Below are positions 414 through 6,657 of a stretch of DNA of 38,759 bases, in pieces. The notes under the pieces are model-generated. The model had not been told where the DNA came from and searched no databases. It worked only from the letters and a program-made list of their open reading frames with translations. The DNA is taken from IMG/VR virus record IMGVR_UViG_2706794681_000009. One strand, 5' to 3'. The position numbers and the translations under genes were made by a program. Within the stretch, counting starts at the first letter, position 1. Each line of letters opens with the position of its first letter. This DNA comes from a virus. Its lineage: Duplodnaviria; Heunggongvirae; Uroviricota; Caudoviricetes.

Positions 414-935
414 ATGGAACTAAAAAATATAACCCGTTATTATCCTGAAAATATGCCATATGGTAATAATGTTCAGTATTTCCAGAGTGAAGATGGTAAG
501 GATTTCTACGAATCCCTGCCATTATTCACCAAAAAATATAAACTTTGCATAACACCTGACAGCGGCGTTATCTGCTCAATATCACAGGACGCCTCGGCGC
601 TGTATCCTGCGGGGTTTTCTGTGGTTGAGGTCGATGAACTCCCTGAAGGCACGGATATTTCAGGAAACTGGAAGTTTGATAATGGCATAATCTCCCGTAT
701 TCCGGTTAACTACGCAAGAAAACTGGAAGCAATGCGCCAGTCATATCTTAATCAGGCATATGAAAAAATTAATGACTGGAGAACGGAGCTACAACTGGGC
801 ACCATCAGCGATGAAGACAGAGCAGCACTTACCCAATGGATGGCATACATCAGTCAGGTGAAGAAAATGGAACTACCCGCCATTAAAACAGAAGCTGAAT
901 TTAACGCCATTAAATGGCCTGAGCAGCCACAGTAA
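414..935 (+). CDS. Tail fibre assembly chaperone (Tfa/U family), 173 aa
   Basis: AGGAGG RBS 6 nt upstream of ATG; size, position directly after fibre tip, C-terminal ...AIKWPEQPQ resembling Tfa C-termini. Confidence 0.75.
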   Translation: MELKNITRYYPENMPYGNNVQYFQSEDGKDFYESLPLFTKKYKLCITPDSGVICSISQDASALYPAGFSVVEVDELPEGTDISGNWKFDNGIISRIPVNYARKLEAMRQSYLNQAYEKINDWRTELQLGTISDEDRAALTQWMAYISQVKKMELPAIKTEAEFNAIKWPEQPQ

Positions 936-966: not shown

Positions 967-1317
967 TTATATACTTGCAGCCGTCACCCATGCTCCATTT
1001 AACAGATACTGCAACGGCCGGTAATACACGCCGCCGACGTTATCTGCCGTATTCTTACCGACATCCTGTACTTTAATTCCGGTAAGAACATTGCCGCCCC
1101 CCAGATTCAGATCCCAGCTTTCCCATGTTCCGGGCATATGTGCGGTCACCGACCCCAGTCTTATGGCGGTTACTGTTCCTGATGAGATAGTGATATCCTG
1201 CGTCCCGTCAAAGGGAACCCCATTAATATTTCTTGGGGTGGCGAGTCTATTCGCGGCAACGGCGGTGCCGTCCGATGGCAGGGCATTCGCCGCCCTGTTT
1301 ACCGTTTCCCGTAAACC
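967..1317 (-). CDS. Alternative tail fibre C-terminal segment (Sv-prime), expressed only after inversion
   Basis: Minus-strand frame continuous from the gix crossover; first ~40 codons identical to Sv (inverted repeat), then diverges, ending NGAWVTAASI. Confidence 0.6.
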   Translation of the reverse strand, partial: GLRETVNRAANALPSDGTAVAANRLATPRNINGVPFDGTQDITISSGTVTAIRLGSVTAHMPGTWESWDLNLGGGNVLTGIKVQDVGKNTADNVGGVYYRPLQYLLNGAWVTAASI

Positions 1318-1319
1318 GA
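1199..1319. repeat. Right inverted repeat of invertible segment
   Basis: Matches reverse complement of 1-121. Confidence 0.8.
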
Positions 1320-1331
1320 GGTTTTCAGGAA
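1306..1331. other. gix-like recombination site (gixR): TTCCCGTAAACCGAGGTTTTCAGGAA
   Basis: Imperfect 26-bp palindrome at the repeat boundary immediately upstream of gin, closely resembling gix/hix crossover sites. Confidence 0.6.
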
Positions 1332-1396
1332 AGCCAGGATTAACTCTGTTTTATTCCTCATGCGACAATTCCGGCTTTTTATAATAAGGAAATCGT

Positions 1397-1969
1397 ATGC
1401 TGATTGGGTATATCAGGGTGTCAACAAATGACCAGAATACGGCGCTACAAAGAAATGCGCTGGAATGTGCAGGATGTGAGCTGTTTTTCGAAGACAGAAT
1501 AAGCGGTAAGACAAGGGAGCGTCCCGGACTTAAACGCGCATTAAAGCGACTCCGGCCAGGGGATACCCTGCTGGTCTGGAAACTGGATCGCCTTGGACGC
1601 AGTATGCAGCACCTTGTCCTTTTAACAGAAGAACTCCGGCAACGCGGCGTTAACTTCCGCAGCATTACGGACAATATTGATACATCCACTCCCATGGGAC
1701 GTTTCTTTTTCCATATAATGGGCGCGCTGGCGGAAATGGAGCGGGAACTCATTATTGAACGTACACGCGCGGGTCTTGCTGCTGCCCGTGCTCAGGGGCG
1801 TCATGGCGGCAGACCTCAGAAACTGACAGAGAAAGAGCGGGAGCAAATCGCCCGTTTGCTGGCTAATGGCGAGTCCCGTAAACAAATCGCACTGATATTT
1901 GATATTGGCCTTTCCACCCTTTATCGTTATTTTCCTGCCTCACCAGCTCCGTCACCAAAAGTACCGTGA
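1397..1969 (+). CDS. gin: Gin DNA invertase (serine recombinase, Hin/Gin/Pin/Cin family), 190 aa
   Basis: MLIGYIRVSTNDQNTALQRNAL... N-terminus with catalytic Ser; near-identity in pattern to Mu Gin; TATAAT and AAGGA upstream. Confidence 0.9.
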   Translation: MLIGYIRVSTNDQNTALQRNALECAGCELFFEDRISGKTRERPGLKRALKRLRPGDTLLVWKLDRLGRSMQHLVLLTEELRQRGVNFRSITDNIDTSTPMGRFFFHIMGALAEMERELIIERTRAGLAAARAQGRHGGRPQKLTEKEREQIARLLANGESRKQIALIFDIGLSTLYRYFPASPAPSPKVP

Positions 1970-2054
1970 CGCTTTTTTGAATTTCCGCAAAACACATATT
2001 TTTCAGCGGTCGCTATTCTGACTCTGTTTAATTCAGAAACAGGCAGAAAAGACG

Positions 2055-4109
2055 ATGTCAGACTCCAAGTGGAAAATGCTCTCCGCCATGCCCGGAGAGT
2101 TTTCAGTCAAGGTTGCCGGTGGCACGGTGGCATTTATTGAAAGCCCTTTCCGCCCTTCGGGTAATAAAGGGGGGATCACCTTCGCAGACTGCGTGATCCG
2201 CTTCAGCACGAAAGAGCCATTATGGGTAATGCCGGTATCCGGTAATCCCAGTGCAGAAATCACCAGTTCAGGCGTGACTGGCATCATTCCAATCACATCT
2301 GACGTGGCCGGAACGCTCACGCCCTCCGACTGGAATGCACCGGATAACGCCGGGCCTTCCGGTAGCACGAATGGCAGCAGTTCAGAGCCGGAATATTACT
2401 TTGTTGTCATTCTCGCGGGTCAGTCAAATGGCATGGCCTACGGCGAGGGGCTGCCGTTACCGGATTCGTTTGACCGCCCGGACCCACGCATTAAGCAACT
2501 GGCACGCCGCAGTACGGTAACGCCCAACGGTACGTCGTGTACATACAACGACATCATTCCGGCAGACCACTGCCTGCATGATGTTCAGGATATGAGCGGG
2601 ATAAACCACCCGAAAGCTGATCTGGCAAAAGGCCAGTACGGGACTGTCGGTCAGGGGTTGCATATTGCCAAAAAACTGCTTCCCTATATCCCACAGAATG
2701 CCGGGATACTTCTGGTGCCCTGTTGTCGTGGCGGGTCAGCATTCACCACTGGAGCCGACGGCTCATTCAGTGAGGCCAGCGGTGCTTCCGCTGATTCTTC
2801 ACGCTGGGGGGCCGGTAAACCTCTGTATCAGGACCTGGTAAGCCGCACCAAAGTCGCGCTGGCGAAAAACCCGAAAAACAAACTTCTGGCTGTGGTCTGG
2901 ATGCAGGGAGAGGCAGACCTTGCCTCAGGAAGCCAGCAGCATAATAGTTTATTCACGGCCATGGTTCAGCAGTTCAGAACTGACCTGGCTCCGCTTGCTG
3001 CGCAGTGCGTGAGTGGAAATGCCACCACGGTGCCGTGGATTTGCGGTGATACCACGTATTACTGGAAAAACGCTGGCACCGATAAATATGAGGCAGTATA
3101 CGGTGGCTACAAAGGCAAGGAAGCACAGAAAATTTTCTTTGTACCGTTCCTGACGGATGAGAATGGACAGAGCACGCCAACGAATGCTCCGGCGGAAGAC
3201 CCGGATATTGTGGCTGTCGGGTATTACGGTGCAGCATCCCGAACCCAGGGCAGTTTTGTTTCGACACAGCGTGACAGCCATTTCAGCTCATGGGCACGCA
3301 GGGGCGTCATTTCAGACCGTCTGGCCTCAGCTATTATGCTCCATGCAGGGCGCACGGCTGAACTGATGCGTGGGCAGACCGTGACACCACCGGATGAGAA
3401 GCCGTCACCTGATACACCATCAAAACCGTCCACGCCACCCGCAGACACCACGACGATGAGTACGCTATTTGCTTACCGGGCATCTGAGTCTGAAGGACGG
3501 TTGACACCACAGGGTTGGGCTGCCGGAGGTGGCAAGGCTCAAATCGTGGATGATGCCGGAGCCAGCGGGGGTAAGGCAATGAAACTGACCAAGGAAACAG
3601 GAAGAGCCCCCTGGTACCTTGAGCATGATGCTGGTAATGGTGCGGACCTGCTGGGTAAAGGTGGTCTTGTCAGTTGTCGTTTTAAACTCGATGGCGCGCT
3701 TACGGCTAATCAGTACGCACTGGCGCTGTACTGGCCGGTTTCTGCCCTGCCGCAAGGGGTTACTCTGGAAGGAAATGCCGGTCATAACCTGCTGGCATCG
3801 TTCTACGTACAGAGCGATGCCACAGACCTTAACGTGATGTATCACAAAGGAAACACGGCGCAGAACACGAAGCTGGGGTCATTCGGCGCATTTAATAACG
3901 AATGGCATACGCTGGGCTTCCGTTTTGCCGGTAACAACAGTATTGAGGTGACGCCGGTCATTGATGGTAAGGACGGGACACCATTCATGCTGTCGCAGTC
4001 TCCGGTCGGCACGTTTACGGCAGACAAGTTGCGCGTGACCGATATCACTAAAAATGCGACTTACCCGGTACTGATTGACAGTATCGTGGTGGAAGTGAAT
4101 AACGCGTAA
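2055..4109 (+). CDS. SASA/SGNH-type carbohydrate O-acetylesterase (NanS-p-like) with Pro-rich linker and C-terminal lectin-like domain, 684 aa
   Basis: Motifs ILAGQSNGMAYGEG and VVWMQGEADLASG; linker PPDEKPSPDTPSKPSTPP; beta-rich C-terminal ~230 aa; no signal peptide. Confidence 0.6.
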   Translation: MSDSKWKMLSAMPGEFSVKVAGGTVAFIESPFRPSGNKGGITFADCVIRFSTKEPLWVMPVSGNPSAEITSSGVTGIIPITSDVAGTLTPSDWNAPDNAGPSGSTNGSSSEPEYYFVVILAGQSNGMAYGEGLPLPDSFDRPDPRIKQLARRSTVTPNGTSCTYNDIIPADHCLHDVQDMSGINHPKADLAKGQYGTVGQGLHIAKKLLPYIPQNAGILLVPCCRGGSAFTTGADGSFSEASGASADSSRWGAGKPLYQDLVSRTKVALAKNPKNKLLAVVWMQGEADLASGSQQHNSLFTAMVQQFRTDLAPLAAQCVSGNATTVPWICGDTTYYWKNAGTDKYEAVYGGYKGKEAQKIFFVPFLTDENGQSTPTNAPAEDPDIVAVGYYGAASRTQGSFVSTQRDSHFSSWARRGVISDRLASAIMLHAGRTAELMRGQTVTPPDEKPSPDTPSKPSTPPADTTTMSTLFAYRASESEGRLTPQGWAAGGGKAQIVDDAGASGGKAMKLTKETGRAPWYLEHDAGNGADLLGKGGLVSCRFKLDGALTANQYALALYWPVSALPQGVTLEGNAGHNLLASFYVQSDATDLNVMYHKGNTAQNTKLGSFGAFNNEWHTLGFRFAGNNSIEVTPVIDGKDGTPFMLSQSPVGTFTADKLRVTDITKNATYPVLIDSIVVEVNNA

Positions 4110-4253
4110 GCAGGATAAAAAAATGCCGCCGGTAAGGGAAAACAAGAAACCGGCGGCAAAAAGATCGTTATATCCAAAGCAAAAAATGCAGTGCACCTTT
4201 TTACCTAACAGATATTACCGGTGTCAACACCATGTCAATAATTGGGAGGGATA

Positions 4254-4436
4254 ATGACATTTTTACAGCTTATTTTATTGTATTTCTGCACGGCAGTATG
4301 TGCGTTATATCTGGTGAGTGGTGGTTATAAGGCCATCAGAAATTATGTTCGCCGCAAAATTGAGGACGCAGCAGCTGAAAAACTCAGTAAAACAGCGCAG
4401 GTAACTCCGCTCCCAAAAGACCCGACCCAGCCCTGA
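4254..4436 (+). CDS. Small predicted membrane protein (~60 aa, one N-terminal TM helix)
   Basis: GGGAGGG RBS 4-10 nt upstream of ATG at 4254; hydrophobic FLQLILLYFCTAVCALYLV segment. Confidence 0.4.
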   Translation: MTFLQLILLYFCTAVCALYLVSGGYKAIRNYVRRKIEDAAAEKLSKTAQVTPLPKDPTQP

Positions 4437-4471
4437 TTGCAGGGCTTTATTCCCGCATAAGGAGGATATAC

Positions 4472-4726
4472 ATGCCAGAAATTAAAGGCACCGTCACTGA
4501 AGACCTGGTAAAACAGGCACTGTATTCCGGTGAAGTAAATAAGTTGCTGAAAGCGCAGGTCCGCAAGGATTTTGAGGCACAAATCGACACTTACGTTGAT
4601 GAAGTGCTGGCAAAACTTATTGGGCCAGCAGTTGCGGCCAGTGATGCTGATAATGAGCCGAAAACCGACGCGCAGCCAGAGCAACCAGACCCGGCTCAGC
4701 CCGGAACTGACAGTACCATGATGTAA
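4472..4726 (+). CDS. Hypothetical protein, 84 aa, acidic Pro-rich tail
   Basis: AAGGAGG RBS 6 nt upstream of ATG. Confidence 0.45.
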   Translation: MPEIKGTVTEDLVKQALYSGEVNKLLKAQVRKDFEAQIDTYVDEVLAKLIGPAVAASDADNEPKTDAQPEQPDPAQPGTDSTMM

Positions 4727-4893
4727 CAATACAAACCGGTGGTGTCCTCTGCCGGTTTGACACTAATGAAAACATCTTTGCCGCTATCCAGCCATATGTA
4801 ATCGCTGGATAGTATTTCGTATTCAGAAATATAGCTGCTTATGGAGCAGTCAATCCTGCTTCCCCATCCGGGCAGGCAAATGAACCGGTATCA

Positions 4894-5187
4894 TTAGTCC
4901 GATTCACGCTTTTGTAGAATCGTTCCCAGAATGCTATACAGCTCATTAGCCTGTTGCTCCATCATTGAGACGGAGGCTATACGGTGCAAAGTGATTTCAG
5001 GAGGTGGCACACCTCCATCTTCTTGCTGTGGAGGAAAAACATAAGATTTAATAAAAAAGTTGAAGCATATGAACTCTCCCGCACTCGAACTGTATTTGCA
5101 GGCATCTGAATAATCGGAAAAATAATCATTATAGATTTCCGCATTTTCAATCATTTTTCGATTTCTCGTCGTTACATGATTGTCCAT
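4894..5187 (-). CDS. Hypothetical protein, 97 aa, AT-rich gene divergent from com-mom
   Basis: AAGAGG RBS upstream; only long ORF in an AT-rich block. Confidence 0.35.
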   Translation of the reverse strand: MDNHVTTRNRKMIENAEIYNDYFSDYSDACKYSSSAGEFICFNFFIKSYVFPPQQEDGGVPPPEITLHRIASVSMMEQQANELYSILGTILQKRESD

Positions 5188-5310
5188 AGCAGCCTCTTAC
5201 GCTGGCAATTAACCAATTGACTTCTATAAATTAGTTGATTTGTTTGCTTTGCGGTATTCAAATGTACAATCATTCAGCACTTATGCGTTACAGCACCGTT
5301 TAAAATTAGT

Positions 5311-5396
5311 GATCAAACTCATAAATTTTCGCTAATGACATTTCGTGTTATTTGTTGTATCAATTAAATAAATCAAATCGATCGTTTTTGTCGATC
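5311..5396 (+). promoter_or_regulatory. mom upstream regulatory region with three GATC (Dam) sites
   Basis: GATC at 5311, 5380 and 5393, the last two within the palindrome AATCGATCG-N-CGATCGATT, just upstream of com. Confidence 0.5.
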
Positions 5397-5443
5397 GATT
5401 GAGTGATAAAGATATCAACAACAAAGCAGGAGGTTATGCGGCC

Positions 5444-5644
5444 ATGTATCGAAACATACGGTGCCGACATTGTAACAAGCTACTGGCACGAGCCAGCTTC
5501 AGTTATCTGGAAGTTAAATGTCCGCGCTGTAAAACCCTCAATCAAATCACATCTCAGAGCGCCACAGAGCACCCCACATACACAAGGAAATCCTGTCGTG
5601 GGGAACAGAAAGCAAGTTACATCCCGTATCATCAGCACGCCTGA
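5444..5644 (+). CDS. com: Com, zinc-finger translational activator of mom, 66 aa
   Basis: CRHCNKLL...CPRCKT zinc-finger pattern as in Mu Com; AGGAGG RBS 9 nt upstream; overlaps start of mom frame. Confidence 0.75.
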
Positions 5645-6335
5645 ACTTATTCACTATAACGACAATATCGTCGGTTATGGCTCCCGTGAGTTACGGGTTG
5701 AGACAATAAGTTGCTGGCTGGCCCGGCTGGTCGTCGTCAATAAACATTACAGCCATCGTTTCGTAAATAATTCCTACCTTCATCTGGGCATATTTTCAGA
5801 ACGGGAGCTGGTTGGCGTAATGCAATGGGGTTATGCCCTTAATCCAAACAATGGTGCACGCGTCGTAACTGGCACGCAGAACCGCGAATATATGGAGCTT
5901 AACCGGTTATGGCTGCATGACTGTATGCCGAGAAACTCCGAATCAAGGGCAATCAGTTACGCGCTCAAACTAATCAGACAACTTTATCCGCAGGTGCAGT
6001 GGGTTCAGTCGTTTGCAGATGAGCGTTGTGGCTGTCTTGGTGTCGTGTACCAGGCAAGCAATTTTGATTATGTAGGCAGTCATGAAACAACATTCTATGA
6101 ACTTGATGGCGAGTGGTATCACGAGATTTGCAAGAATGCAATCAAACGAGGAGGACAGCGAGGTGAACATCTGCGGGCTAATATCGACAGAGCCAGTGTT
6201 CATAAATTCCGTCAGTTTCGTTACATCCGGTTTCTGGACAAGAGAGCCAGAAAACGCCTTAACACAAAGCTATTCAAAGTCCAGCCTTACCCAAAACCAC
6301 AAACAGTTAAAACTGGTTTGAAAGAGAGTGAATGA
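5598..6335 (+). CDS. mom: Mom DNA-modification (anti-restriction) protein; start codon uncertain (GTG at 5598 proposed)
   Basis: Long frame overlapping com 3' end, position at phage right end after com; no ATG in frame near com stop, AAGGA precedes GTG 5598. Confidence 0.55.
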
Positions 6336-6407
6336 ACGCTTAAAAACTCATTCTAAAACTCAAAAGAAAAGCGCCGATTTAGTATCAAATAAGTTGCGTA
6401 TCGGCGT

Positions 6408-6657
6408 NNNNNNNNNNNNNNNNNNNNNNNNNNNNNNNNNNNNNNNNNNNNNNNNNNNNNNNNNNNNNNNNNNNNNNNNNNNNNNNNNNNNNNNNNNNNN
6501 NNNNNNNNNNNNNNNNNNNNNNNNNNNNNNNNNNNNNNNNNNNNNNNNNNNNNNNNNNNNNNNNNNNNNNNNNNNNNNNNNNNNNNNNNNNNNNNNNNNN
6601 NNNNNNNNNNNNNNNNNNNNNNNNNNNNNNNNNNNNNNNNNNNNNNNNNNNNNNNNN
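6408..6657. other. Assembly gap (run of 250 N)
   Basis: Literal N characters. Confidence 1.

Follow-up and report, generated by a model that had tools for sequence, protein, structure and literature searches.

It is probable that Mu-like prophages of Escherichia coli and Shigella carry, as a standing accessory located between gin and com-mom, a three-gene sialate O-acetylesterase module comprising the esterase itself and two small proteins of the DUF1378 and DUF826 families. The example analysed here lies in IMG/VR virus record IMGVR_UViG_2706794681_000009, a stretch of 38,759 nucleotides (hereafter the window), which represents an E. coli Mu-like prophage specifying MuA, MuB, Mor, GemA, a Mu-type portal, protease I, the gpT major head protein, the tail sheath, and Gp48. 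The interval between gin and com measures 3,474 bp in the window versus 94 bp in Mu, and houses four open reading frames (ORFs): three on the plus strand, of 684, 60, and 84 amino acids (aa), and one of 97 aa on the minus strand. A preliminary description, made from the letters of this DNA, listed the ORFs with their motifs and ribosome-binding sites (RBSs), a linker, AT-rich DNA, and the gin and com-mom flanks, and all of these are present where it placed them. Taken alone the enzyme is ordinary; the useful and testable part is the swap of one of its domains, the conservation of all three genes together in two phage backbones, and the exchange that takes place among prophages. Protein profiles were drawn from Pfam, PHROGs, NCBIfam, and PADLOC-DB v2, and RNA families from Rfam. 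The components of the module are as follows.

2055-4109, plus strand: esterase ORF, 684 aa, with three domains and two linkers
2055..2339, plus strand: Mu-type N-terminal domain (residues 1-95), in place of DUF1737
2340..2393, plus strand: Ser/Gly/Pro-rich linker (residues 96-113); the structure model is of low confidence from residue 82 on
2394..3344, plus strand: NanS-type SGNH/SASA catalytic domain (residues 114-430), from 3PT5 and Pfam matches
3345..3458, plus strand: Pro/Ser/Thr linker (about residues 431-468, ...TPPDEKPSPDTPSKPSTPPADTTT), by direct reading of the sequence
3459..4109, plus strand: lectin-like jelly-roll domain DUF6645 (residues 469-684 and stop), from 6YP6 and Pfam matches
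4254..4436, plus strand: DUF1378 protein, 60 aa (Pfam DUF1378 1.2e-31; phrog_494)
4472..4726, plus strand: DUF826 protein, 84 aa (Pfam DUF826 6.4e-16; phrog_311 4.9e-28)

As judged from its sequence, the 684-aa protein is a NanS-p-type sialate 9-O-acetylesterase, since its catalytic domain matches NanS and its C-terminal domain matches the NanS-p lectin, with the key residues kept. Both the GQSNGMAYGEG motif (GQSN from residue 122) and WMQGEAD (residue 282) lie within this ORF. Pfam reveals SASA (PF03629; 1.5e-13, residues 117-312) and DUF6645 (7.4e-68, residues 533-650), and the protein matches phrog_143 at 1.7e-296. [quoted passage not shown] In NanS the catalytic residues are Ser19 and His301, Gln18 contributes to the oxyanion hole, and a catalytic Asp is absent (PMC9063846); these residues correspond to Ser124, His409, and Gln123 of the phage esterase, in which the catalytic set is retained as Gln123 and Ser124 (GQSN), QGE at 284-286, and His409 (RDSH). 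The assignment to the SASA-type esterases made in the preliminary description, for which the test had been set beforehand, is therefore upheld by the Pfam and 3PT5 matches together with the conserved Gln-Ser pair and His. So too is the lectin-like nature of the C-terminal domain, which matches NanS-p structure 6YP6 with an E value of 7.1e-98 in addition to DUF6645. Four aromatic residues of the NanS-p C-terminal domain have been named as a proposed carbohydrate-binding site (PMC10462455), and all four are kept (Y554, Y559, Y584, and F654). RefSeq names the protein either "sialate O-acetylesterase" or "DUF6645 domain-containing protein." The NanS-p alleles of strains EDL933 and O104:H4 that have been tested were all active esterases, which permitted growth on 5-N-acetyl-9-O-acetylneuraminic acid (Neu5,9Ac2) and deacetylated mucin glycans (PMC8065619), and the window allele is predicted to act upon Neu5,9Ac2 and O-acetylated mucin glycans likewise. 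The esterase possesses neither a signal peptide nor a membrane anchor that could hold it on the surface of the lysogen.

The first 95 residues, a feature which the preliminary description missed, differ from the DUF1737 domain of NanS-p. Pfam gives no DUF1737 match in the esterase at E values up to 0.1; the segment shows 13-25% identity to the N-termini of lambdoid NanS-p proteins and matches no family. DUF1737 folds as a helix plus three strands (bioRxiv 10.64898/2026.04.10.717836), whereas the structure model of the Mu-type domain is all-β, a cupin-like small β-barrel of about 80-95 residues, for which fold searches return weak, generic matches. A word-indexed search with this domain recovered fragments of its own protein only, and an exhaustive HMMER search against 1.84 billion representative proteins gave three hits, namely fragments of the same protein and P0006, a 30%-identical homologue which forms the N-terminal start of another SASA esterase. 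The P0006 gene lies (locus L026, from a non-E. coli assembly) 3′ of a Mu-type baseplate, tail fiber, invertible segment, and resolvase; this is a third lineage, with the N-domain and baseplate J each only 30% identical and the gene in the same position. Pattern scans of the IMG/VR and metagenome contigs with the N-domain alignment yielded the two E. coli alleles, which are ~60% identical to each other, and nothing further. Neither a paralogue elsewhere in the phage nor, in the HMMER search, a stand-alone homologue was found. As far as found, the N-domain occurs only in Mu-type phage esterases. A literature search, the coverage of which was incomplete, turned up no description of NanS in Mu-like phages or Sp18, or of a distinct N-terminus.

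The two genes downstream of the esterase are its conserved companions. The DUF1378 protein exhibits a single N-terminal transmembrane helix (hydrophobic residues 3-24), a basic C-terminus, and an isoelectric point (pI) of 9.3, and its gene is preceded by the RBS GGAGG at a distance of 5 nt; the DUF826 protein is acidic (pI 4.2), with AAGGAGG 8 nt upstream. In phage 933W the gene order is stxB, nanS-p (L0105), DUF1378, DUF826, and holin S, and the occurrence of both families between nanS-p and S has been noted (PMC10462455). A lambdoid prophage of E. coli M3 that lacks Shiga toxin (Stx) genes likewise carries nanS-p, DUF1378, and DUF826 just 5′ of holin S. Among phage records searched by tblastn, DUF1378 is present in 309 and the esterase in 349, with nearly the same breakdown by organism. 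Because the trio is kept in two unrelated backbones, and the Mu-like copy lies far from lysis genes, this linkage suggests that DUF1378 and DUF826 are functional partners of the esterase rather than of the lysis cassette. The preliminary description had grouped three small ORFs with the esterase; DUF1378 and DUF826 are indeed conserved partners, and the third, of 97 aa, is an unrelated orphan in a variable slot, outside the three-gene module.

The block is absent from Mu, D108, SfMu, and the Mom-bearing loci of 19 other species, as expected of a region that, according to the preliminary description, is not core to all Mu-family phages. Where the Mom loci of other species contain gin, it is found within about 120-300 bp of com or mom. 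Within E. coli the picture is different. The gpT-type capsid gene of the window is found in 273 of 5,426 complete E. coli genomes; the N-domain allele of the window (allele 1) occurs in 32 of these 273, and a second (allele 2) in 205, including O157:H7 strains. Since about 230 of these roughly 273 genomes carry the block, it is a lineage-fixed accessory module of E. coli Mu-like prophages, present as two old alleles, and not a recent one-off insertion. The earlier view of the region as cargo at a phage-terminus site thus stands insofar as the block is accessory and missing from Mu, and fails insofar as it implied a recent single acquisition.

Gene order is congruent with this. In 30 of the 34 IMG/VR contigs possessing the N-domain, gin (or its remnant) is followed by the esterase, DUF1378, and DUF826, and then, where the contig is long enough, by a variable slot and com plus mom; three of the remaining four end before DUF1378 or DUF826, and the fourth (L029) is a Mu/lambdoid recombinant. 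The N-domain probe also recovered 17 gut-metagenome contigs, the N-domains of which belong to the two alleles already named. Between the two E. coli alleles the island from gin to DUF826 is 59-78% identical, whereas identity amounts to 92-98% in baseplate J, Gp48, and the tail-fiber N-terminus, and to 95-98% in Com and Mom.

Comparison with the E. coli M3 lambdoid allele reveals that the esterase gene is a mosaic. DNA identity is ~35% before positions 2400-2423 and ~90% from there to ~4270, and then falls to ~53% from the 3′ half of DUF1378 on through DUF826, a stretch in which the second Mu allele shows 78-80%. The upstream recombination breakpoint (about 2400-2423) coincides with the beginning of the SASA domain. 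In amino acid terms, the window esterase shares 93% of its catalytic and 91% of its lectin residues with M3, versus 90% and 86% with proteins that possess the same Mu N-domain allele; allele-2 N-domains show 97-98% identity in proteins that have 67-69% identity in the catalytic and 36-46% in the lectin domain. As the N-domain stays alike while the body matches lambdoid alleles better, the enzyme body circulates among phage types. The DUF1378 and DUF826 alleles differ between Mu-type and lambdoid contexts. In the hybrid locus L029 (96-6100; IMG/VR UViG_2617270951_000022), gin is of the Mu type and the esterase has the Mu N-domain, but DUF1378 and DUF826, which come next, are of the lambdoid type and lead on to holin S, endolysin, and Rz; this junction is evidence that Mu-like and lambdoid prophages recombine by way of nanS homology. 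In lambdoid phages the regions upstream of nanS-p give strong Rfam hits to the small RNAs STnc100 (two tandem copies in L027), AsxR, and AgvB (L003:2921-3180 and L027:5361-5824), none of which is present 5′ of the Mu-type esterase gene.

From these data we propose that the esterase would function as an SGNH type II hydrolase, with Ser124 as the nucleophile, His409 as the base, and Gln123 as the oxyanion residue. Expression would depend on read-through that originates in gin, in the late tail operon, or in both. Since the protein carries no signal peptide, its most likely routes of release are lysis, which in a fraction of induced cells would free the enzyme, or passage on the virion. By homology with NanS and NanS-p, it would then take off the 9-O-acetyl groups carried by Neu5,9Ac2 and by O-acetylated mucin sialoglycans, the beneficiaries being surviving lysogens, which would gain usable sialic acid, and possibly phage particles on their way through mucus. 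The enzyme body continues to exchange alleles with the lambdoid nanS-p genes of its host species. Three points weigh against parts of this scheme. The roles ascribed to DUF1378 and DUF826 derive from conserved linkage; the interval from gin to the esterase gene yielded neither a convincing promoter nor a convincing terminator, the consensus scan of positions 1300-6400 giving counts at or below the shuffle expectation; and, with the island at 59-78% and its flanks at 92-98%, the N-domain does not co-diverge with the virion proteins within E. coli.

An alternative which we regard as possible, though doubtful, is that the N-terminal barrel docks the esterase on the Mu-like capsid or tail, where it would act mainly on the particle in adherence to, or penetration of, mucus rather than as a soluble public good. 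In phi24B the DUF1737 domain of gp84 forms a hexamer on the capsid hexons and the protein is a processed virion component, making DUF1737 a capsid anchor (preprint, bioRxiv 10.64898/2026.04.10.717836). It is this very domain that, exactly at its boundary, is swapped for one that occurs solely in Mu-type phage contexts (34 of 34 IMG/VR loci, 17 metagenome loci, and L026); the N-domain remains constant while the enzyme body is exchanged, as in tail fibers and tailspikes, and the gene lies directly 3′ of those for the tail fiber and invertase. On the other side, the N-domain has neither stand-alone homologues nor a paralogue in the phage, the matches of its fold are weak and generic, and its E. 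coli alleles are ~60% identical versus 92-98% for the virion proteins compared. We rate docking low because the N-domain alleles diverge far more than do virion proteins. A broader version, put forward tentatively, would have the same esterase-lectin body plugged into lambdoid podovirus capsids and Mu-type myoviruses via interchangeable anchors (DUF1737 or the Mu barrel), with DUF1378 and DUF826 dedicated to its release, processing, or assembly; in that case the Mu-type barrel would constitute a novel virion-docking family. That a Mu-restricted domain stands exactly in the place of DUF1737 makes docking the most interesting reading, and the swap, in conjunction with the capsid anchor of the preprint, offers a cheap direct test of whether a mucin-modifying enzyme is displayed via swappable anchors.

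The other explanations carry less weight. That the enzyme deacetylates the bacterial surface (O-antigen, sialic acid-containing lipopolysaccharide, or K1 polysialic acid), so gaining access to a receptor or changing the lysogen surface to exclude other phages, is unlikely: the catalytic domain is very near that of chromosomal NanS (E 1.8e-117), the substrate of which is free Neu5,9Ac2, NanS-p alleles act upon mucin sialic acids (PMC8065619), the aromatic residues of the lectin site are those of the Stx-phage enzyme, and the protein has no signal peptide or membrane anchor. What speaks for it is that the gene adjoins those for the tail fiber, that some phage tail proteins contain SGNH/SASA domains (phrog_25867, "tail protein," 1.2e-06, and a match to an Arthrobacter phage minor tail protein), and that a review has brought up this possibility for NanS-p (PMC8065619). 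Quite improbable is a functionless passenger, copied in by recombination with lambdoid prophages and having no selected role. Recombination with lambdoid nanS-p alleles is evident, and L029 contains a Mu/lambdoid junction; but two alleles of only 59-78% identity, found in ~230 complete genomes, both retain an intact ORF and the catalytic residues, the third lineage (N-domain and baseplate J each 30% identical) keeps it in the same position, and it is not a simple lambdoid copy because its N-domain is unique to the Mu context. The preliminary description had also raised the possibility of an exclusion or defense module formed by the esterase and the small proteins. A variable AT-rich accessory region near the phage end is a frequent site of such genes, and the divergent 97-aa ORF lacks an assigned function. 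Yet none of the four proteins has a significant match in PADLOC-DB v2 (the best being PbeC on DUF826, with an E value of 0.0076 and 12.9 bits), the three-gene set matches a characterized metabolic enzyme module, and many related loci do not have the orphan ORF, which leaves this reading very unlikely. The same four proteins gave no match in NCBIfam.

The closest known system is NanS-p, exemplified by 933W L0105/z1466 and phi24B gp84 (vb_24B_21). The window esterase shares its SASA/SGNH catalytic domain, which is 70% identical to the 933W protein and up to 93% to a non-Stx lambdoid allele, as well as the Pro/Ser/Thr linker, DUF6645 with the four aromatic residues, and DUF1378 and DUF826 downstream. 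It differs in having a β-barrel where the lambdoid protein has DUF1737 at its N-terminus, in lying between gin and com-mom rather than between Q/stx and holin S, and in being carried by a transposable Mu-like myovirus instead of a lambdoid phage. It thus has most of the features that define NanS-p and lacks two, DUF1737 and the lambdoid Q-S location. The statement in the preliminary description that NanS-p genes sit beside tail-fiber genes in prophages proved wrong, lambdoid nanS-p being found between Q/stx and the lysis cassette. Chromosomal NanS (YjhS, 3PT5), a 9-O-acetyl-N-acetylneuraminate esterase, has the same catalytic domain, Gln-Ser pair, and catalytic His; by comparison it is a bacterial single-domain protein of ~326 aa, to which the 684-aa phage protein adds the N-terminal barrel, two linkers, and the lectin. 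The right ends of Mu, D108, and SfMu have in common with the window the G segment, gin, com, and mom, and also the GATC cluster upstream of com, and are distinguished from it by the short gin-com interval, which contains four genes here. Phages are also known to carry SGNH esterases and mucus-binding capsid decorations on their virions, such as the tailspike deacetylase of phage G7C and T4 Hoc. These resemble the present protein in combining an esterase or glycan-binding domain encoded near structural genes with a modular N-terminus; there is no sequence kinship beyond the SGNH fold, and a place for the window esterase in the particle is hypothetical.

NanS-p esterases have so far been discussed almost exclusively as passengers of Shiga toxin phages which aid enterohaemorrhagic E. 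coli (EHEC) in feeding on mucin sialic acid. The three-gene module is near-constant in a second, unrelated type of E. coli phage, including the Mu-like prophage of O157:H7 strains, and its enzyme body is exchanged with lambdoid copies, the N-terminal domain alone being specific to the type of phage. This furnishes a second context in which the uncharacterized families DUF1378 and DUF826 can be studied.

The remaining features of the region are the following, with the coordinates of com and mom being those of RefSeq.

1397..1969, plus strand: gin-type DNA invertase, left flank (Pfam Resolvase 1.6e-51 and HTH_7; 74% identity to Mu Gin)
2024..2042, plus strand: short inverted repeat CTGTTT-AATTCAG-AAACAG, just 5′ of the esterase start codon
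4124..4158, no strand assigned: strong hairpin between the esterase gene and DUF1378 (-22.8 kcal/mol, z -4.6)
4732-4759 and 4783-4813, plus strand: two hairpins 3′ of DUF826 (z -2.6 and z -3.2)
4894..5187, minus strand: orphan 97-aa ORF in an AT-rich variable slot (DNA of 32-44% GC)
5444-5644, plus strand: com, right flank (Pfam Zn_ribbon_Com 1.3e-12)
5598-6335, plus strand: mom, right flank (Pfam Mom 1.6e-77; 78% identity to Mu Mom)

The preliminary description correctly stated that gin of Mu lies near com-mom, the distance being the 94 bp given above. It placed the cargo at 1970-5200, of which the start is correct and the end falls short: likeness to the region upstream of mom in Mu, with its GATC cluster, picks up again only near 5355-5400, so that the extra DNA relative to Mu spans about 1970-5350. 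The cluster (cGATCGtttttgtcGATCGATtg; window 5355-5443, upstream of com) is common to the Mu mom control region. It is located ~45 nt from the start of com, and no TTAT-N6-ATAA sequence follows it upstream of com in the window, from which we surmise that the layout of the mom promoter may differ from that of Mu. The only exact TTAT-N6-ATAA in the 38.8-kb window, where 0.22 are expected by chance, is TTATTCCCGCATAA at 4447-4460. The pattern resembles the Mu C-activator site; the occurrence, just 5′ of the DUF826 RBS, is probably due to chance, since its position is unfit for a promoter element of the flanking genes, and it was rejected as a Mu C-protein-type site.

The genes gin and esterase are co-oriented and 85 bp apart, and the gap holds no recognizable terminator, in keeping with the read-through proposed above. 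The inverted repeat at 2024..2042 within this gap is kept in both E. coli alleles and in variants devoid of gin, and the hairpin predicted from it is statistically unexceptional (z -1.96). Several relatives have suffered a deletion of gin (L025:2783-3086, L047:8800-9000, and six more loci), of which the last ~58 nt remain; in these the tail-fiber segment is locked in one orientation and ~140 nt 5′ of the esterase gene are retained.

Upstream, gin comes after the invertible segment, which is bounded by inverted repeats of 142 nt (1-142 and 1178-1319; 94% complementary), the first base of the window being the exact start of the left repeat. The segment (213-1149) contains one tail-fiber assembly gene (414-935, plus strand) and a short alternative tail-fiber C-terminal ORF (967-1149, minus strand); a second assembly gene is absent from it, and RefSeq flags the counterpart as an incomplete tail protein. 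Exactly 250 N (6408-6657) lie between the plus-strand piece, which extends from the G segment to mom, and the remainder of the Mu-like genome, which is on the minus strand. Because all of these genes are co-oriented in complete genomes, the window has the look of two pieces of an assembly that were put together at the invertible repeat with opposite orientations.

The hairpin at 4124..4158 has a T-run downstream on the minus strand only, and the region is 81-89% identical to its lambdoid counterpart. An Rfam match here to Esr41, a small RNA of EHEC (minus strand, 4115-4197), was rejected, with 22 bits versus a gathering score of 102, and an Esr41-like match is absent from five related loci. 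The second of the hairpins 3′ of DUF826 (4783-4813) is followed by UAUUUCGUAUUC, and the pair (4732-4813) probably ends the three-gene transcript.

The 97-aa ORF, which RefSeq calls as 86 aa from an internal ATG, has no family in Pfam, PHROGs, NCBIfam, or PADLOC. Its homologues come from E. coli and Shigella only, with identities of at least 79%, and the codon changes among them number 10 synonymous versus 20 non-synonymous. The AlphaFold2 model is poor (predicted local distance difference test score 62.5), too poor for a fold search. Many related loci lack this ORF and have other small ORFs instead: between DUF826 and com (slot 4760-5400), L002 carries a 64-aa Cys-rich ORF, and L024 and L080 other hypothetical proteins. 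The AT-rich slot behaves like a moron hotspot, more so than does the esterase block. Farther downstream in L002 (9221-10472), a Mu-like insert in Stx2c phage LC727881, the place of mom after com is taken by an ORF of 350 aa with the appearance of a C5-cytosine DNA methyltransferase.

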